A stretch of DNA of 20,000 bases. It comes from an uncultured virus (IMG/VR IMGVR_UViG_3300020020_000024) (taxonomy: Duplodnaviria; Heunggongvirae; Uroviricota; Caudoviricetes). The stretch lies in the IMG/VR virus record IMGVR_UViG_3300020020_000024; one strand, 5' to 3'. The translations under genes and the position numbers were made by a program. Numbering within the stretch: position 1 is the first letter of the stretch; every line of letters begins with the position of its first letter. The notes below the pieces were generated by a model that ran no database searches, was not told where the DNA came from, and saw only the letters and a program-made list of their open reading frames with translations. Below, in pieces: positions 10,394 through 18,050 of this stretch.

Positions 10394-10663
10394 ATGAGAA
10401 AGTTTATAGCATCAGCAATTTTGCTATCCCTTTTCTCAGTAGCGATGGTGGGCAATTGTTTTGCTTATAGTTTTTCGGTTGAAAAAGTATTGGTAATAAA
10501 AAAGCAGATTACTGCTGAGGCAATCGCTGAACCAATGTTTTTCTATACAAAGCCGATGAACAAGCACGAACAAAGGAAGTACCATCTTGCAGCCGGAGTA
10601 AACCAAAGGGTTGAAACTCGCTGCAACAGTCCTACTGAAAGGCATTTGCAAAATTCATATTAA
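10394..10663 (+). CDS. small putative secreted protein
   Basis: MRKFIASAILLSLFSVAMVGNCFA signal-peptide-like N-terminus; followed by a terminator. Confidence 0.6.
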   Translation: MRKFIASAILLSLFSVAMVGNCFAYSFSVEKVLVIKKQITAEAIAEPMFFYTKPMNKHEQRKYHLAAGVNQRVETRCNSPTERHLQNSY

Positions 10664-10689
10664 AAAAATGTAGTAAAGAAAAAACAACT

Positions 10690-10720
10690 GATCCCTGCTT
10701 ACCTGCGGGGATTTGTTTTT
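10690..10720 (+). terminator. intrinsic terminator
   Basis: gatccctgc-ttacct-gcggggatt followed by tgttttt. Confidence 0.65.
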
Positions 10721-10746
10721 ATTGATTATCCGAAATTAATTTTCCC

Positions 10747-10754
10747 TACATTTG
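10747..10754 (+). promoter_or_regulatory. -7 element of the methyltransferase promoter
   Basis: TACATTTG, 27 nt upstream of ATG 10782. Confidence 0.55.
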
Positions 10755-10781
10755 AAACCGACATAAATACCACCTTCGTTC

Positions 10782-13301
10782 ATGATTAAGATACTGCACG
10801 GTAAAATGGAAATCAGACTAAAAGAATTTCCAGATAATTATTTTGATAGTGTTGTTACAGATTCTCCGTATGGTCTCGGTGAAGAACCAAATGTAATTGA
10901 AGTATTAAGAGACTGGCTCGATCATGGTTATCACGAAGTAAAAAATAACGGTGGATTCATGAATGCTGAGTGGGATAAATTTGTTCCGCAACCAAACGCA
11001 TGGAAAGAAGTTTACAGAGTGCTTAAACCAGGTGGCCACTTAGTTACGTTCGCAGGCACACGGACATATGATTGGATGGTTATGAGTTTGAGGATCGCAG
11101 GATTTGAAATAAGAGATCAGTTGGATTGGTTGTATGGATGTTTAAGTAATGATACGGAAGTGCTTACTGAAAAAGGATGGATTTCTTATAAAAATCTTAA
11201 CACAATTGACTATGATAAGATAATGTGTTATGATATTTTGGACGACAGTATCCATTTTGAAAGACCACAAAAATGGAATGAATACCAAATCAAAGATACC
11301 TGTTACCGAATACAATCTGATAGTACAGACCAAATCGTCACCAGAAATCATCGTTGCCTTATTGAACGAAAAGGAAAGCTATTATTTGAGTTTGCTGAGA
11401 AAGCCGCACGGGAACAACAAGCGAATATACCCATTCTGGAAAGCATGTCGTGTTTGCGGGAAACCTTTTATGACTCATACCAAAGAACAAGCAAGCAGAA
11501 ACAAATGTTGTTCAAGGAAATGCCAGACAGCAATTTTAATAAACCGGAGAAAACGTGCAGTAAAATATTTAATAGAGAAAAAATGCGCTGTTTGTGGGGA
11601 AAGATACAAAGCAAGACAAGACAGGGAATCAAAATATTGTTCTGCAACATGCAATGGAAAAGTACAAGCATTGGGCTTAATAAAACATTCTCACAAGGGT
11701 CATTTGAGTTGGACAAAAGAAACAAAGTTGAAATTCAAGAAAAGAATGAAGGGGGCTTCAAATCCATCTTGGAAAGGGGGCGTAACATATCGAAACAGGA
11801 AAGGTGTTTACCGTCAATGGAAGATAAAATATATAAAGTGTCCAGTAGAATACGCATCAATGAGCAGGAAAGACGGGTATATAACGGAGTACAGATTGAA
11901 AGTGGCGCAACAACTACGACGAGTATTAACAAGAATAGAGGTTGTTCATCATATAGATCACAATCCAGAGAACAACGATATAGCGAATCTGATGTTATTC
12001 AAAAACAATGCAGATCACAAGAAATACGAAGCGGGGTACGATATAAAACCACTCTGGCAACCATCACTCCATTTGAATATAGCGGCATAGTTTTTTGTCC
12101 TACTGTATCTACTGGTGCTTTTGTAGCAAGAAGAAATGGAATGATTTTTATAACCGGAAATTCAGGATTTCCAAAATCACTCAACGTAAGTAAAGCTATT
12201 GATGCAAAATTCGGTGCTGAAAGAGAAGTGATCGGTAAAAGAAAACATCCTACTTTAAAAAATCCGGAAAAAATAATGGAAAGTAAAAGTGCTGTTCATA
12301 CGCTTGCTGATACTTGGCAACGTGAATGGCCTATTACTGCAGCCGCCACAGATGAAGCAAAGAAATGGCAGGGATGGGGAACGGCATTGAAGCCCGGGCA
12401 CGAACCGATATGTCTTGCAAGAAAACCATTATCAGAAAAAAACATTGCTGAAAATATTTTGAAATGGGGAACAGGCGCTATCAATATTGATGAAAGTAGA
12501 ATCGGATTTGCAGATGATGAAGATAAGGATAGTGCAGTATGGGGCAGAGGCACTGATATTGGTGGTGGAAATTTTGTTGGTTCTACTAAGTCATCAGGCA
12601 AAACAAATGTAGAACCTAATAAAGCAGGGCGATGGCCGGCAAATGTGATTCTTAGTCATCATCAAAATTGTGTTGATGAAATTCAAGAATGGAAATGCGT
12701 TGATGATTGTCCGATTAAAATTCTTAATGATCAAGCACCATCTACTGGCGCTGTTTCAATGATCAAAAAAGGCAGCTACGGTGTGAGCCAAAACACATAC
12801 AACGATTACGCATACAAAGGTGATGATGGAAGAACATTCAGGGGTGATATTACCGGGGCCAGCAGATTCTTTTATTGTGCGAAGGCAGATACACAGGAAA
12901 GGAATATGGGGCTTGATAAAGACAAGTATAAAAAAATAATCAATCATGGCATTCATGATACTTGTGAAATATGCGGAGGAAGAATATTCCAGGCCCAGGG
13001 TTTTCCTGGAACTTGTATTTGTGATGAACCAACAAGGCAAGGGAAAATAGTTAAAGGGAATTTTCATCCAACTGTAAAGCCTGTTGCCCTCATGCAATGG
13101 TTAGTAAATTTAATAACTCCTATCAACGGAAAAGTTCTCGATCCGTTTAATGGAACTGGTTCAACCGGGATCGCTTGTAAGATTGATGATTTTGAATATA
13201 TAGGGATTGAACAAGAAAAAGTTTTCTGTGATATCAGCGTGGATAGAATAAATGGCTGGATATATCAAAAAAAGAATTTAGTAGGTGATATGTTTGATTA
13301 A
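10782..13301 (+). CDS. beta-class N4C/N6A DNA methyltransferase precursor containing an intein
   Basis: VVTDSPYGL (motif IV variant), RVLKPGGH, WLYG|SGFPKS restored after intein removal, GWGTALKP, HPTVKP, VLDPFNGTGSTG (motif I). Confidence 0.92.
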   Translation: MIKILHGKMEIRLKEFPDNYFDSVVTDSPYGLGEEPNVIEVLRDWLDHGYHEVKNNGGFMNAEWDKFVPQPNAWKEVYRVLKPGGHLVTFAGTRTYDWMVMSLRIAGFEIRDQLDWLYGCLSNDTEVLTEKGWISYKNLNTIDYDKIMCYDILDDSIHFERPQKWNEYQIKDTCYRIQSDSTDQIVTRNHRCLIERKGKLLFEFAEKAAREQQANIPILESMSCLRETFYDSYQRTSKQKQMLFKEMPDSNFNKPEKTCSKIFNREKMRCLWGKIQSKTRQGIKILFCNMQWKSTSIGLNKTFSQGSFELDKRNKVEIQEKNEGGFKSILERGRNISKQERCLPSMEDKIYKVSSRIRINEQERRVYNGVQIESGATTTTSINKNRGCSSYRSQSREQRYSESDVIQKQCRSQEIRSGVRYKTTLATITPFEYSGIVFCPTVSTGAFVARRNGMIFITGNSGFPKSLNVSKAIDAKFGAEREVIGKRKHPTLKNPEKIMESKSAVHTLADTWQREWPITAAATDEAKKWQGWGTALKPGHEPICLARKPLSEKNIAENILKWGTGAINIDESRIGFADDEDKDSAVWGRGTDIGGGNFVGSTKSSGKTNVEPNKAGRWPANVILSHHQNCVDEIQEWKCVDDCPIKILNDQAPSTGAVSMIKKGSYGVSQNTYNDYAYKGDDGRTFRGDITGASRFFYCAKADTQERNMGLDKDKYKKIINHGIHDTCEICGGRIFQAQGFPGTCICDEPTRQGKIVKGNFHPTVKPVALMQWLVNLITPINGKVLDPFNGTGSTGIACKIDDFEYIGIEQEKVFCDISVDRINGWIYQKKNLVGDMFD
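11139..12161 (+). mobile_element. intein (residues Cys120-Asn460, 341 aa)
   Basis: Block A CLSNDTEVLTEKGW, block B IVTRNHR (TxxH), block F YSGIVFCPTV, block G FITGN followed by Ser+1; interrupts the conserved WLYGSGFPKS motif. Confidence 0.92.
11230..12090 (+). CDS. HNH homing endonuclease in the +1 frame inside the intein (true start uncertain)
   Basis: Two CxxC...CSxxC zinc ribbons, KGASNPSWKGG NUMOD-like motif, DGYITEYRL and EVVHHIDHNPENNDIANLMLF...H HNH core. Confidence 0.85.
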   Translation: MIFWTTVSILKDHKNGMNTKSKIPVTEYNLIVQTKSSPEIIVALLNEKESYYLSLLRKPHGNNKRIYPFWKACRVCGKPFMTHTKEQASRNKCCSRKCQTAILINRRKRAVKYLIEKKCAVCGERYKARQDRESKYCSATCNGKVQALGLIKHSHKGHLSWTKETKLKFKKRMKGASNPSWKGGVTYRNRKGVYRQWKIKYIKCPVEYASMSRKDGYITEYRLKVAQQLRRVLTRIEVVHHIDHNPENNDIANLMLFKNNADHKKYEAGYDIKPLWQPSLHLNIAA

Positions 13302-13302
13302 T

Positions 13303-13473
13303 ATGAAATATAAAGTTACCTATACCTATTACTGTTGGCTACCAGGGGCACAGACAATATATGTCGTGTTTGTTATTTATGAGCCAGACCTGTTTGATAA
13401 TAAATCAGAATTGCACAGATTTTTGTCCAGGTTCAATGGGTATGTGTTAAAAATCAAGCATAAAGAAATTTAA
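13303..13473 (+). CDS. hypothetical protein (start ATG 13303)
   Basis: Starts 1 nt after the MTase stop; 56 aa. Confidence 0.5.
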   Translation: MKYKVTYTYYCWLPGAQTIYVVFVIYEPDLFDNKSELHRFLSRFNGYVLKIKHKEI

Positions 13474-13517
13474 TTTTTGGCTGCAAATTTGTTTATATTT
13501 AGTTACAACTTAAACTT

Positions 13518-14230: not shown

Positions 14231-14329
14231 TTTGGAGATATGACTTTTTATCCTACTTTAGCAGTCCTCTTTGGTGGAAGAGGATGGTGGCTTGTAAAAG
14301 GGTGCTGGTTCGGCACCCTTCTTTTTTTT
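14231..14329 (+). ncRNA. candidate small RNA of about 65 nt with its own promoter and terminator
   Basis: TTTG (14231), 19 nt, TACTTTAG (14254); hairpin tcctctt/aagagga; terminator aagggtgctg/cggcaccctt plus T-tract, which could also end the convergent HNH gene. Confidence 0.45.
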
Positions 14330-14732
14330 ATCGCTGTGAAGCGATTTTTATTTTTTTATAACCAGTTATGTAATGCTGCTTCTCAAACTCCTTATTAGTT
14401 AACGGAACTTTTATTGAATATTGAATTACCTTTTTTACATTCTCAATCATTACTTGAAGTATTGATGCGGGATAGTTTTTTATTCCATTCTTTCTTCTGA
14501 GTTGTGTTTGCAACCATACAAGAAATTGAACAGGCGTTCTATCATCCTTTGTCCTATTACATATATCACAGCAGCTGCCTAAAATATTTTGAGTTGATCG
14601 CAAGCCGTCTTTTGATTTTGGATGCATATGATCTTTTGTTCGTATAAGAGGCTTAATTAATTCCTTATATGGTGTTCCATATTTTCTTTCGCAGTAGTAG
14701 CAATGATCATTGCAGCATTGTGGTTTTTGCAT
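14328..14732 (-). CDS. free-standing HNH endonuclease
   Basis: CYYC...TKDHMHPKSKDG....N....CCDICNRTK, a His-Me finger with zinc ligands. Confidence 0.85.
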   Translation of the reverse strand: MQKPQCCNDHCYYCERKYGTPYKELIKPLIRTKDHMHPKSKDGLRSTQNILGSCCDICNRTKDDRTPVQFLVWLQTQLRRKNGIKNYPASILQVMIENVKKVIQYSIKVPLTNKEFEKQHYITGYKKIKIASQR

Positions 14733-16246: not shown

Positions 16247-17161
16247 TTAGCTAAATGCTTCACAAGTTTCGACACATCCGTCATTAGTATCTAAATATTC
16301 ATCCCACATACCACCGGCAATATTTACAGGATAAATTATTTTACTTTCATCCTGAGCCTCTACAAACGGGAACTTTGATTCTTCGATTATATCATCAACT
16401 GATCTCTGATCCCTGTAAAATCGGATCGGCAGTTTTGTTTCATCTTTCCTGTGTTGCCTGGATTCGGGGATGTAGTTGCCGTATTTGATTTCCATTTCTC
16501 TCCACCAGTTAGTCAATTTTGGTTCATTCTTGCTAAGTGTCATTAATTTCCTTATTGATTTTTTCCAACACAGGTCGCAGTTACCTTCATAAGATTTCAA
16601 TTCAAGATCAAAAGATTGTTTACTCCAAAATATATTCACATCATTACGGCTAACCTTTTTCAATGTAACAAATGGATAAAAAAGATTTTCTTTTTTTAGA
16701 GTCTCCCAATTAATCCGGGCCGGTTCATCAATTCTATATCCAACCGCAGTAATGTAATCCTGGCCTACCCATGCAATGGATCTAGCGTAAGCCCTGATTG
16801 CTTCCTTTTTTAATTGACGTGAGCAATGTGGATTAGGTTTGTTCGGTATCCCATACTTACTAATCATATCTTCAAACACCTGTCCATCTCTGTTTGCTGT
16901 CTCAAATGAAACTACATTTGCGGTAACACCTTCTCCGAATTTTTGATTTGTAACAGCTTCAATCCAAACAGTATTAAAACCAAAATTCAAATCACAGTTT
17001 CTGACGAATTCTAAGGTTGGTTCTTTCTCTTTTCCGGTATTAGAAAAGACAATTATTATTTCATAGTTATGGCGATCGGGCCACTCATTTAATAACCACC
17101 AAGTCATGTATGCAGAGGTTCTGCCGCCAGAGAAAGATATTAGAAGTTTTTTCTTTTTCAC
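16247..17161 (-). CDS. PAPS-reductase-like PP-loop protein
   Basis: ISFSGGRTSAYM PP-loop, FSNTGKE, CSRQLK, GYRIDE, GNCDLCWKK, C-terminal GCVETCE. Confidence 0.88.
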   Translation of the reverse strand: MKKKKLLISFSGGRTSAYMTWWLLNEWPDRHNYEIIIVFSNTGKEKEPTLEFVRNCDLNFGFNTVWIEAVTNQKFGEGVTANVVSFETANRDGQVFEDMISKYGIPNKPNPHCSRQLKKEAIRAYARSIAWVGQDYITAVGYRIDEPARINWETLKKENLFYPFVTLKKVSRNDVNIFWSKQSFDLELKSYEGNCDLCWKKSIRKLMTLSKNEPKLTNWWREMEIKYGNYIPESRQHRKDETKLPIRFYRDQRSVDDIIEESKFPFVEAQDESKIIYPVNIAGGMWDEYLDTNDGCVETCEAFS

Positions 17162-17177
17162 TAAATATGTATTGTGA

Positions 17178-18050
17178 CTATTTACCTATACTATTTTGAA
17201 TATGACTTAAAATATCCTGAGATGGCCCACAGAATCCATTACATTCCATTAACGGCTCAGACATCCTTCCCTCTATCATTGTAATGTCTTTTACGAAAGG
17301 ATACTCAGGATGCGGTATAAGAAATACAGGTAGTGGTTTCCCACCGTTTTTTAATCGTGCTTCTTTGGACTGATCTTTTAGTATCGTCACAGGAACTCCC
17401 TTTTCATTTGTATATCGATGTTCTCTTATTCCCATGCTTTCAAAGCGGTCAGGGAAATCAACTTTATACTTTTGCCAGTAACCAATACCACCTTGAACAC
17501 ATCCTGTTTTTAAACAGTTATTATTTGAATAGCCCATCTGATAAGATAGGGGAGGAATTATATTGTTTTTTTGTAAGAGTTTTAAGGATTCGGTTTTACT
17601 CATTAGTTCATAGATGATCGGAAATATCGGCTTTGAGTCAGGATAATTTATTCTCAATGCTTTTGCTCGATCAATTTCGTTGATGTCATAACCGAAAGCC
17701 TGGTAGGAATATTTATTCTTATTCTGAAATACTTTCCTTACTTCTCTTTTTAATTCAGTAGAACAGATCGCACCGCCGGCAACAGTAAGTGATAAATAAT
17801 GATCCCACACATCTTCTATATTATCCCATTTGTCGGTACAAATAGTTTCGATTTCTTTTCCATACCAGTTCTCACAATCCTTTTTGAACCTATAAGTATC
17901 ATCATCTTCATTTCTTGTATCAATGAATACGATCCTTACTGAATCCGGGCCGAACCATTCCAGGCACTTCTTACAAGCGATGGCTGAATCACCACCACCA
18001 CTCCACCAACCTATAACTGGATACTCAGGAGTTATTTCAGAAATCACCAT
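17178..18050 (-). CDS. second PAPS-reductase-like PP-loop protein (distinct subfamily)
   Basis: WWSGGGDSAIAC PP-loop, EDDDTYRF, CSTELK, NNNCLKTGCVQGGIGYW, C-terminal ECNGFC. Confidence 0.88.
   Translation of the reverse strand: MVISEITPEYPVIGWWSGGGDSAIACKKCLEWFGPDSVRIVFIDTRNEDDDTYRFKKDCENWYGKEIETICTDKWDNIEDVWDHYLSLTVAGGAICSTELKREVRKVFQNKNKYSYQAFGYDINEIDRAKALRINYPDSKPIFPIIYELMSKTESLKLLQKNNIIPPLSYQMGYSNNNCLKTGCVQGGIGYWQKYKVDFPDRFESMGIREHRYTNEKGVPVTILKDQSKEARLKNGGKPLPVFLIPHPEYPFVKDITMIEGRMSEPLMECNGFCGPSQDILSHIQNSIGK

Follow-up and report, generated by a model that had tools for sequence, protein, structure and literature searches.

We analysed a window of 20,000 nucleotides, the whole stretch of DNA studied, from an uncultured virus of the Caudoviricetes (IMG/VR record IMGVR_UViG_3300020020_000024), in which a DNA methyltransferase gene contains an insertion that is open in two reading frames (Table 1). 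The host ORF matches N6_N4_Mtase in Pfam (E 1.3e-24) and phrog_67, DNA methyltransferase, in PHROG (E 8.9e-46), and its frame, frame 0, is free of stops over 10767-13298. Within the insertion, frame 0 has the ends of an intein, and a second ORF, offset by +1 against the host frame, encodes an HNH endonuclease.

Table 1. Features of the methyltransferase locus and of the two frames of the insertion
Feature	Position	Strand	Description
N6/N4 DNA methyltransferase precursor ORF	10782..13301	+	839 aa + stop, frame 0; ORF list
N-extein	10782..11138	+	119 aa, C-terminal end ...DQLDWLYG
Intein	11139..12161	+	341 codons, frame 0, Cys1 ... Gly340-Asn341; Ser+1 at 12162
N-terminal splicing (Hint) half	11139..11438	+	intein residues 1-100, including T68xxH71; AF2, profile, omega
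Frame-0 filler/linker	11445..12038	+	intein residues about 103-300; S/K/R/E/Q-rich, predicted disordered
C-terminal splicing half, blocks F and G	12039..12161	+	Cys320, Thr339, Gly340, Asn341
C-extein	12162..13298	+	starts Ser+1-GFPKS
Longest +1-frame ORF, HNH endonuclease	11230..12090	+	286 aa + TAG (12088-12090); ORF list, Pfam, PHROG
Most likely translated HNH gene	11278..12090	+	270 aa; family-conserved ATG
Zinc ribbon 1	11446..11523	+	C73, C76, C94, C98 (286-aa numbering); invariant in alignments A1 and A4
Zinc ribbon 2	11584..11652	+	C119, C122, C137, C141; invariant in alignments A1 and A4
NPSWKGG motif	11761..11781	+	read off the sequence; N, P, W, K, G, G invariant in A1
HNH catalytic core	11866..12030	+	...EYRLKVA...VVHHIDHNPENND..NLMLF..N..HKKYE

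The initial annotation had proposed an intein with Cys1, TxxH and a terminal Gly-Asn before Ser+1, and all of these are present. The insertion begins with the Cys1 codon (11139-11141) and reads ...FITGN at its C-terminal end. Cys occupies position 1 in 120 of 120 relatives, and GN followed by Ser or Thr closes the element in all 120 relatives with mapped boundaries (Ser in 119, Thr in 1). Block B has the T/S-x-x-H motif as T68-R-N-H71, and H71 is invariant across 90 relatives, as are C320 (block F position 4), T339, G340 and N341. The usual penultimate His of block G is absent both here (Gly340) and in the 120 relatives; it is not obligatory, because the active AceL NrdHF intein also does without one according to its description (PMC7891396). 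Two marks of class 3 inteins are there, C320 being the Cys at position 4 of block F and T339 the Thr at position 5 of block G, with block positions placed by eye from the motif description in PMC7891396. The class 3 Trp at block B position 12 is absent (Cys73 in the window, family consensus HRC), and so is the class 3 lack of a nucleophile at position 1, Cys1 being invariant.

In the AF2 model of the intein, the N-terminal half is all-beta with pLDDT 81-97, and the C-terminal splicing half has pLDDT 82-95. When the intein model was compared with PDB by Foldseek, the matches listed were nearly all inteins or Hint domains, among them 6zgq, the AceL NrdHF intein (E 4.4e-5, TM 0.57 on target), which was also matched by a profile built from the 90 relatives (E 1.4e-7). 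The frame-0 insert has no Pfam family (E <= 0.1) and no PHROG (E <= 0.01), and the window intein stays under the cut-off of TIGR01445 (15.3 bits, E 0.029; cut-off 24.5). Curated Pfam profiles found Intein_splicing in 9, Hint_2 in 4 and PT-HINT in 2 of the 90 relatives. Between the splicing halves, the model shows no secondary structure across residues 116-302, and pLDDT is 41-53 over residues 111-300 and 60 over residues 101-110, by which the frame-0 middle is predicted to be a disordered linker. This linker contains 0 stops, against 15-18 expected.

For the +1 frame, the initial annotation had described a stop-free ORF ending at block F, with two zinc ribbons, a NUMOD-like motif and an HNH core. 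The HNH frame is indeed open over 11224-12087, where the third frame is open for just 102 nt, and the TAG lies over I317/V318 of the intein, at the start of block F. Both zinc ribbons follow the pattern CxxC...CxxxC. It turned out that residues 237-260 of the ORF match HNH_3 (PF13392) with 25.7 bits (E 8.9e-6), above the gathering score of 24.8, and that 63 of 66 relatives match this family too. Among 11 PHROG matches of the ORF, 9 are named HNH endonuclease, and the best is phrog_1271 (E 2.2e-16, residues 71-270). The catalytic His/Asn/His residues (H224/H225, N237 and H247 in the 270-aa form) are invariant in the 66 relatives. The profile search of both frames thus supported the HNH assignment in the +1 frame and gave no Pfam family for the frame-0 insert. 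The "NUMOD-like" label is not supported, as no NUMOD family was matched by the window (E <= 0.1) or by the 66 relatives (E <= 0.01).

The AF2 model of the HNH protein (mean pLDDT 89, pTM 0.49) consists of several small domains with flexible links, and the whole model found nothing in PDB by Foldseek at E <= 1e-3. As for the beta-beta-alpha-metal fold of His-Me finger endonucleases, the best VIA-align match of model residues 166-256 is I-HmuI (1u3e), at a weak Z of 5.1 (rmsd 4.2 A, 76 aligned residues, 18% identity), while the HNH core gives Z 3.8 against I-PpoI. I-HmuI, from an intron of a Bacillus phage, is like the HNH protein of the window a phage HNH enzyme of homing type, but it is intron-encoded and has different DNA-binding modules. 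The HNH family profile found only weak zinc-ribbon look-alikes among PDB sequences (eL24, E 0.023).

The initial annotation had noted that both frames are open over the overlap, and permutation shows that this goes beyond chance. When synonymous codons were permuted within the HNH ORF, 18.5 frame-0 stops were expected and 0 observed, and none of 5000 permutations left frame 0 stop-free; the third frame, used as a control, has 34 stops against 30.8 expected. Codon usage in the HNH frame shows the same avoidance, with T-ending codons at 0 of 73 positions before codons starting with AA, AG or GA and at 47 of 146 positions before other codons. Across 104 non-identical loci, the counts are 0 of 6442 before such codons against 24.2% elsewhere. 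Both reading frames are held open by selection.

The frame in which amino acids are conserved changes along the element, as shown by frame-specific dN/dS, a check that the initial annotation had proposed. We pooled omega over ten independent gapless pairs of relatives; relatives were used instead of the window itself because its nearest relative has about 53% amino-acid identity. From the intein start to the ATG, omega is 0.12 in frame 0 and 1.73 in the HNH frame; in the core it is 1.17 and 0.22; in the C-terminal splicing part it is 0.08 and 2.23, a contrast that is qualitative because overlapping frames are not independent and constraint in one lowers dS in the other. Over the N-terminal splicing half, frame-0 omega is 0.12-0.22, and mismatches in the core number 69, 65 and 164 at HNH codon positions 1, 2 and 3. 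Purifying selection thus changes frame at the domain borders, acting on frame 0 at the splicing ends and on the HNH frame between them.

We collected 150 phage and metagenome loci with at least 200 aa of the HNH, and frame 0 is open across the whole HNH ORF in 146 of them, with a median open length of 108 nt for the third frame. A search with the splicing half alone gave 91 further loci, 90 of which contain the HNH, all 90 in frame +1. The initial annotation had named frequent stops in the +1 frame of homologues as an objection, and the frame stays open in the homologues. Among the 150 HNH-found and 91 splicing-domain-found loci, there is no HNH in frame with both intein halves, no other endonuclease type and no true mini-intein. 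The splicing-domain-found set also includes a single 199-aa form with a truncated HNH (L214), and decayed copies are seen at L062, L128, L221, L222, L227 and L234. In one 801-aa representative protein (P0010), the HNH frame runs directly into the C-terminal splicing part and the C-extein, which means that frame changes do happen in the family.

Besides, the family shows signs of horizontal transfer. The inteins of L072 and L115 have 0 differences over 343 codons, and their 5' exteins have 48 differences over 74 codons; L010/L011 and L017/L026 repeat this pattern of like inteins in diverged exteins. Near-identical inteins within diverged methylase alleles point to active homing.

Taken together, the results make it very probable that the N6/N4 DNA methyltransferase gene of this phage contains a mobile intein written in two overlapping frames. 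In frame 0, two Hint-fold splicing halves (residues 1-100 and 301-341) would be joined by a linker of about 200 residues, which is probably unconstrained and disordered, with the absence of stop codons as its sole requirement. Once translated, the intein would splice itself out and link ...WLYG with SGFPKS..., by which a motif conserved in the methyltransferase would be re-formed. The predicted joined junction, WLYG followed by SGFPKS, is the unbroken motif of the intein-free relatives L152 and phage Mantra gp64. The +1 frame would supply a free-standing HNH endonuclease of about 270 aa, in which a helical N-terminal segment precedes two zinc ribbons and the HNH_3 core, and which is translated separately, most likely from the internal ATG at 11278. 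The nuclease would cut intein-less methyltransferase alleles, and repair would copy the entire element into them. The proposal that one frame serves as a splicing-compatible filler and the other as the mobility nuclease is supported by the frame-specific selection, the structure prediction and the layout in 146 of 150 loci.

A reading in which the insertion does not splice, and frame 0 is read through and retained as an extra loop of the methyltransferase, as has been proposed for ShiLan, here with vestigial Hint-like ends, seems very unlikely to us. The same methyltransferase family does tolerate out-of-frame HNH insertions without an intein (L149-L152, L155 and L157-L162, as well as the ShiLan type in Mantra gp64), the methyltransferase may be dispensable, and the missing penultimate His and the scores under curated intein thresholds fit such a loop. 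Vestigial ends, however, are hard to reconcile with C1, Asn341 and Ser/Thr+1 in 120 of 120 relatives, or with the strong purification of these ends in frame 0 (omega 0.08-0.22). The confidently predicted Hint fold resembles solved active inteins, and the nearest solved relative, AceL NrdHF, is described as splicing well without a penultimate His (PMC7891396). Excision would also restore the conserved YGSGFPKS exactly. We infer that the element splices.

The start of the nuclease was placed with the help of the relatives. In 92 of 120 relatives, an ATG is conserved at a distance of 43-52 codons ahead of the YPxW motif, and it corresponds to 11278 in the window. The +1 ORF of the initial annotation stands in its extent (11230-12090), and the nuclease most likely starts at this ATG instead of at 11230. 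A Shine-Dalgarno match of at least 5 nt precedes the conserved ATG at 30 of 76 loci (39%), against 4.1% of control positions, and the two signals suggest independent translation of the nuclease. As another route, programmed ribosomal frameshifting could make the HNH as a fusion of N-extein, N-intein and HNH with no internal initiation. In its favour, the HNH frame of 116 non-identical ORFs runs on without a stop for 47 codons or more (median 66) in the upstream direction from the first zinc ribbon, and the ATG of the window has no Shine-Dalgarno motif, which is also the case for 13 of 15 of the window's own genes. We hold frameshifting to be very unlikely, given the conserved ATG position and the enriched Shine-Dalgarno motif at that ATG; it would also need a +1 shift, and an unsystematic look brought no conserved slippery site to notice.

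Two compensating indels of sequencing or assembly could in principle have shifted the in-frame HNH of an ordinary intein, a possibility that the initial annotation had named. Such indels are the commonest source of apparent frameshifts in metagenome assemblies, and P0010 shows a frame change within the family. With an artefact, however, chance alone would have to keep frame 0 free of stops for about 216-286 codons, which none of the 5000 permutations achieved. The artefact would also have to recur, as 146 of 150 independently assembled loci have the +1 layout and so do 90 of 90 HNH-bearing loci found by their splicing domain, in inteins of different composition (GC from 0.37 to 0.54 among the first four compared) and with 0 loci that have the HNH in frame with both intein halves. 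In contigs from an independent sample, positions 11079-11822 and 11834-12114 are reproduced without a difference or a gap, so that no indels appear across the element. Openness, family layout and independent contigs rule out this artefact as far as computation allows, and its probability is negligible. Equally negligible is a group I or II intron with an HNH ORF and an incidentally open frame 0: phage group I introns often carry HNH genes, but a permissive Rfam scan of 10500-13500 (E <= 1) gave no intron family and only a chance snoRNA-like match, an open frame 0, which introns do not require, is maintained in 146 of 150 loci, and the Hint-fold ends are selected in frame 0.

The doubt about novelty in the initial annotation was justified. 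The general design, with out-of-frame homing endonucleases in inteins and "hidden" HNH genes in phage methylases, is already known from work of the Gogarten laboratory in 2025-26 (PMC11855218; bioRxiv 10.1101/2025.01.02.630785; bioRxiv 10.64898/2026.09.14.751524), beside which a genome announcement also turned up (PMC12613952). What is new against these published cases is that the nuclease family, the host gene and the intein are all different. In the literature, we found no account of an N6/N4 methyltransferase interrupted by a complete intein whose HNH lies out of frame, though supplements of the preprints may list such elements.

Gosselin, Arsenault and Gogarten (bioRxiv 10.1101/2025.01.02.630785) describe non-canonical inteins of actinobacteriophages with the homing endonuclease in a separate frame. 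As described there, they share with the window intact splicing blocks, a same-strand endonuclease ORF between the blocks in another frame, an in-frame middle without recognisable structure, and evidence of continued transfer; they are proposed to have arisen when a free-standing endonuclease gene invaded an intein. The out-of-frame nuclease of that set is endonuclease VII-like and in "frame 3", whereas ours is of HNH_3 type with two zinc ribbons and in frame +1; in the described set HNH appears only in frame, and in the window it is out of frame. The host genes described are actinophage genes for DNA polymerase, minor capsid protein, terminase and thymidylate synthase, in contrast to an N6/N4 methyltransferase and a taxonomically wide set of hosts for the window family.

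Phillips, DeSimone and Gogarten (bioRxiv 10.64898/2026.09.14.751524), who cite Gorbalenya 1998, report a cyanobacterial dnaX intein with an out-of-frame LAGLIDADG endonuclease, for which secondary invasion of a mini-intein is proposed. It resembles the window element in its overlapping frames and, over the overlap, in a low dN/dS in the endonuclease frame and a raised one in the intein frame. It differs in the LAGLIDADG type, in the cellular dnaX host and in the related mini-inteins that are described as coexisting with it, while the 91 splicing-domain-found loci of our family include no true mini-intein.

The ShiLan domain (Arsenault, Gosselin and Gogarten 2025, PMC11855218) is a "hidden HNH" insertion in mycobacteriophage DNA methylases. 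It occurs in the same methyltransferase family, Mantra gp64 having the same WLYGSGFPKSLDVSKAIDKAAGAERE motif, and is described as a mobile element with a zinc-ribbon HNH out of frame and an open host frame. The ShiLan HNH is distantly homologous to that of the intein-less class in our set (34-35% identity, E about 1e-6 to 1e-7), and the window HNH has no match to ShiLan phages at E <= 1e-5. In that account ShiLan is without splicing blocks and is thought to be retained in the protein, whereas the window has a full Hint domain. In Mantra gp64, the ShiLan site lies about 70 residues further downstream, after ...ARKP, in frame +2.

AceL NrdHF, the closest solved relative of the splicing domain, is a split class 3 intein from a phage-like contig (Hoffmann et al. 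2020, PMC7891396), and such fractured genes were described by Dassa et al. 2009 (PMC2677866). By the published description, it shares with the window intein the Cys at block F position 4, the Thr at block G position 5 and the lack of a penultimate His, and a free-standing homing endonuclease gene lies between its intein halves. There, two genes each encode one part of the split intein, and the GIY-YIG endonuclease has a gene of its own without overlap; in the window, the halves are joined by a read-through linker that overlies the nuclease gene. Residue 1 is Ala in AceL NrdHF, as in class 3, and an invariant Cys in the window family.

More tentatively, the family may be an old, large and still-homing lineage in which an intein and an HNH gene of free-standing type were fused and overprinted, that is, a "sealed" fractured gene; we regard this as possible but doubtful. 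Some 45 codons, from 11278 to about 11428, would in that case code for two segments that both fold and are both under constraint, namely the beta-strands of block B in the Hint domain (frame 0) and the N-terminal helical segment of the nuclease (frame +1). This nuclease segment, which is lacking in free-standing and intein-less relatives, would have been born by overprinting. Having both Cys1, the class 1 nucleophile, and the branch-point Cys of class 3 in block F (position 4), the intein might splice by a hybrid or switchable route.

In conclusion, the locus is a clean natural case of dual coding whose selective logic is legible in the sequence, with about 200 codons of one frame shaped by stop avoidance alone. 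The predicted splicing domain accommodates a disordered insert of 200 residues, and its nearest solved relative is described as a fast-splicing split intein, both of which may interest protein engineers. Loci of this family number in the hundreds and come from phages, prophages and metagenomes. Because gene callers record them as a methylase containing an unusual insertion or as an isolated HNH gene, the true number of out-of-frame inteins probably far exceeds the handful of published cases. A single methyltransferase family contains out-of-frame HNH genes in three arrangements (enclosed in an intein, bare within a linker, and of ShiLan type), on which ideas of how inteins and free-standing homing endonucleases unite can be tested.

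The window has the appearance of a part of a phage genome, with tail-fibre-like, PAPS-reductase-like and HNH genes, and the runs containing its sequence are soil metagenomes. The insert, which interrupts a DNA methyltransferase gene, starts with CLSNDTEVLT, holds T68-x-x-H71 inside and ends with ...MIFITGN, followed by Ser; the context of the site in the intein-less allele is ...TGGTTGTATGGA|TCAGGATTTCCA.... The insert, its splicing motifs and the HNH ORF in the +1 frame were all found in the places where the initial annotation had described them. Besides, a second homing-type nuclease, which is free-standing, is encoded 1 kb downstream of the methyltransferase by a separate ORF with matches to PHROGs of HNH and endonuclease VII (E 1e-9 to 4e-7), and two adjoining genes form a tandem pair, each matching phrog_424, a phage family named "phosphoadenosine phosphosulfate reductase" (E about 1e-43 to 5e-44).

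Coordinates of features in the window and in relative loci
Feature	Sequence	Coordinates	Strand	Remarks
N6/N4 DNA methyltransferase ORF	window	10782-13301	+	839 aa; Pfam N6_N4_Mtase E 1.3e-24; phrog_67 E 8.9e-46
Insert (predicted intein)	window	11139-12161	+	341 extra codons between ...DWLYG and SGFPKS...
Cys1	window	11139-11141
HNH ORF	window	11230-12090	+	286 codons, stop TAG, wholly within insert, offset +1
C320	window	12096-12098
Thr339-Gly340-Asn341	window	12153-12161	+	intein C-terminal end
Free-standing nuclease ORF	window	14328-14732	-	134 aa
Tandem pair	window	16247-17161; 17178-18050	-
Methyltransferase pieces	L002	2050-3756; 4192-5211
Free-standing HNH-like ORF	L002	3747-4220	+
Methyltransferase frame	L152	2032-3897
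HNH ORF	L152	2492-3139
Mantra gp64 locus	L164	425-2749		Mycobacterium phage

Cys1, the terminal Asn and Ser or Thr at position +1 are present in all the 120 relatives with mapped borders, and the penultimate residue is Gly in each of them (120 of 120). Single-sequence Pfam scans of 90 relatives gave weak signals (Intein_splicing 9, Hint_2 4, PT-HINT 2) and no intein-family match for the window's own intein; a profile of 90 relatives matches the solved AceL NrdHF intein with E 1.4e-7. In the AlphaFold2 model from a 90-sequence alignment, residues 1-100 and 301-341 are confident beta structure (pLDDT 81-97), and residues 111-300 are without secondary structure (pLDDT 41-53). Foldseek matches of this model are inteins and Hint domains, i.e., 6zgq (AceL NrdHF), RadA, PolB1, DnaX, DnaE, DnaB and hedgehog. 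The predicted excision joins WLYG to SGFPKS, which is exactly the uninterrupted motif of intein-free relatives. From the sequence and the model, we conclude that the insert is an intein, in which a disordered linker, read through in frame 0 (the methyltransferase reading frame), takes the place of the endonuclease.

This intein has an unusual set of catalytic residues, Cys1, C320 and T339, which are all invariant. Cys1 is shared with class 1 inteins; C320, the Cys in position 4 of block F, and T339, the Thr in position 5 of block G, are shared with class 3 inteins. Either Cys1 or C320 may be the nucleophile that acts first. The nearest solved relative, AceL NrdHF, is described in the available part of its report as a class 3 split intein, likewise without the penultimate His (PMC7891396).

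Profile searches of both frames bear out the assignment of the nuclease to the +1 frame. The HNH ORF matches Pfam HNH_3 with a score above the gathering threshold and 11 PHROGs, 9 of which are named HNH endonuclease (best E 2.2e-16, residues 71-270), and the frame-0 translation of the insert has no match in Pfam or PHROG. The ORF contains two CxxC...CxxxC zinc ribbons, an NPSWKGG motif and an HNH core; the label "NUMOD-like" for NPSWKGG gets no support from profile searches with the window and relatives. The best structural match of the core is the homing endonuclease I-HmuI, a weak one (Z 5.1, rmsd 4.2 A, 76 residues). The product read from 11278 (270 aa) is predicted confidently, with mean pLDDT 89, and its two N-terminal helices, which overlap the intein block B region, are missing in free-standing and intein-less HNH relatives. 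The conservation of these helices may be a by-product of the frame-0 constraint.

This layout is widely conserved. The one close analogue that tblastn found in phage records comes from an uncultured phage of 484 kb and shares the methyltransferase, the insertion site, the +1 ORF and the open frame 0. When the HNH protein or its alignment served as query, there were 112 relatives in viral contigs (80 kept) and at least 379 relatives among at least 595 matched stretches of metagenome contigs (80 kept). The locus set has 164 sources (the window and 163 loci), 150 of which hold at least 200 aa of the HNH protein; the loci are partly non-independent, with 116 non-identical HNH ORFs and 104 non-identical inteins with mapped borders, and clustering below 80% identity leaves 90 clusters. 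It turned out that the frame one base upstream is stop-free across the whole HNH ORF in 146 of 150 loci; both frames are kept open and the homologues are not marked by frequent stops, in line with the initial annotation. In the 150 loci, open stretches of the third frame have a median length of 108 nt and a maximum of 390 nt. Of the four exceptions, two lie at contig ends (L034, L138), and in the other two (L062, L128) the methyltransferase frame is broken by decay and the HNH ORF is intact.

A second search, for which the query was cut down to residues 1-100 of the splicing domain, gave 91 further loci. HNH is present in 90 of these, each time in frame +1, and the frame-0 intein is complete in 82. 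By source, 13 belong to genome bins from widely separated phyla and one to an isolate genome, Plastorhodobacter daqingensis (L255), which carries the intein and HNH unit. The bins of L243-L255 include Bacteroidetes, Chloroflexota, Acidobacteriaceae, Gallionella, Kiritimatiellae, Spirochaetes, Bathyarchaeia and Methanospirillum, and these units presumably sit on prophages or on phage contigs that were binned along with these genomes. HNH in frame with both intein halves was not found at any locus of the HNH-based and splicing-domain sets, and no other endonuclease type was found in the intein among the relatives examined. Only L214 comes near a mini-intein (199 aa, with the first 107 HNH residues only).

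Stages of decay are seen at L062, L128, L221, L222, L227, L234 and L214; for example, in L234 block A contains a stop and HNH is missing. In P0010, a representative-library protein of 801 aa, the HNH frame continues stop-free through the C-terminal splicing part and on into the C-extein. The change of frame is natural or was introduced by the assembly, and such a fusion is the sole case among the best 150 representatives. At L002, the intein-bearing methyltransferase is cut again downstream by a free-standing HNH-like ORF separating its pieces, which is a second mobile element in one methyltransferase gene.

For a null model, synonymous codons were shuffled within the HNH ORF with protein and codon usage preserved (n=5000). 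Over this ORF, frame 0 has no stops vs 18.5 expected, and 0 of 5000 permutations are stop-free; the third frame has 34 stops vs 30.8 expected. A frame-0 stop arises when an HNH codon ending in T is followed by a codon starting with AA, AG or GA. Before such codons, T-ending codons occur at 0 of 73 positions in the window (32% before other codons) and at 0 of 6442 positions in 104 loci (24.2% elsewhere). Compensating indel errors, which could have put the HNH out of frame, are not seen in independent-sample contigs (contigs, not raw reads) covering 11079-11822 and 11834-12114, which show zero differences and zero gaps.

Frame-specific dN/dS (omega) was pooled from 10 independent gapless close-relative pairs, with each locus used once. 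Constraint lies in the HNH frame over the core and in frame 0 at the splicing ends. Mismatches in the core (69, 65 and 164 at HNH codon positions 1, 2 and 3) show the same contrast directly. From the conserved ATG to the first zinc ribbon, dS is low in both frames (0.056 and 0.032).

Omega by region and frame; because each of two overlapping frames affects the value of the other, the comparison is read for its direction only
Region	Frame 0	HNH frame
Intein start to conserved ATG	0.12	1.73
Conserved ATG to first zinc ribbon	0.22	0.58
Core	1.17	0.22
C-terminal splicing part	0.08	2.23

In several pairs of loci, the intein is nearly identical and the flanking methyltransferase far diverged. L072 and L115 have 0 differences in 343 intein codons and 48 in 74 5'-extein codons (dS 1.57), while dS is 0.05-0.10 in the intein vs 1.27 in the extein for L010/L011, and 0.015-0.08 vs 2.7 for L017/L026. 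This is the pattern that would be expected from recent homing into different alleles.

Inteins with an out-of-frame endonuclease are already published as a type. Gosselin et al. describe actinophage inteins with the endonuclease in another frame or on the opposite strand, where the other-frame nuclease is endonuclease VII-like ("frame 3"); in the available part of this preprint, HNH occurs in-frame only and no non-canonical intein is in a methylase (bioRxiv 10.1101/2025.01.02.630785). The available part of Phillips et al. reports a cyanobacterial dnaX intein with an out-of-frame LAGLIDADG, which has a frame-specific dN/dS pattern as in the window's family, and attributes the idea to Gorbalenya 1998 (bioRxiv 10.64898/2026.09.14.751524). 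For a complete intein that sits in an N6/N4 methyltransferase and has, in frame +1, an HNH_3 nuclease with two zinc ribbons, no full-text description was found (preprint supplements not covered), and the novelty is modest.

Out-of-frame HNH genes are also carried without an intein. The ShiLan domain of Arsenault et al. is, in the available part of that paper, an HNH encoded out of frame in methylases of mycobacteriophages, and it has no splicing domain (PMC11855218). Its carrier Mantra gp64 belongs to the same methyltransferase family as the window's, with WLYGSGFPKS intact, and the insert lies about 70 residues further downstream than the window's, in frame +2; it follows ...ALKPSHEPVVVARKP, with the HNH ORF over residues 298-529. 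Near its N-terminus, Mantra gp64 also has an in-frame LAGLIDADG-like segment (...YWLAGLIDGEGCF...). A second way of carrying the same HNH family as in the window is seen at L149-L152, L155 and L157-L162, for instance L152, where the intein site YGSGFPKS is intact, no Hint domain is present, frame 0 is open, and a shorter HNH gene in frame +1 occupies a variable linker 10-20 residues downstream, between the C-x-C and C-x-x-C pairs. This type is like ShiLan, but the site and frame differ. Thus, one methyltransferase family has at least three kinds of out-of-frame HNH insertion.

As for how the nuclease is made, no fewer than 47 codons (median 66) of open HNH frame precede the first zinc ribbon in the 116 non-identical ORFs, and 92 of 120 loci have an ATG 43-52 codons upstream of the YPxW motif. 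A Shine-Dalgarno match of at least 5 nt precedes the conserved ATG in 30 of 76 non-identical loci, vs 4.1% at other positions of the same inteins. The window's conserved ATG (11278) has an A-rich leader without the motif. Among the window's gene starts, 13 of 15 have no Shine-Dalgarno match and their leaders are A-rich, which suggests that its host may use Shine-Dalgarno-independent initiation. The comparative evidence supports the reading of one frame as a splicing-compatible filler and the other as a mobility nuclease. It is well supported by these comparisons that the intein would be spliced out, while the nuclease would be translated separately from an internal start and would drive homing.
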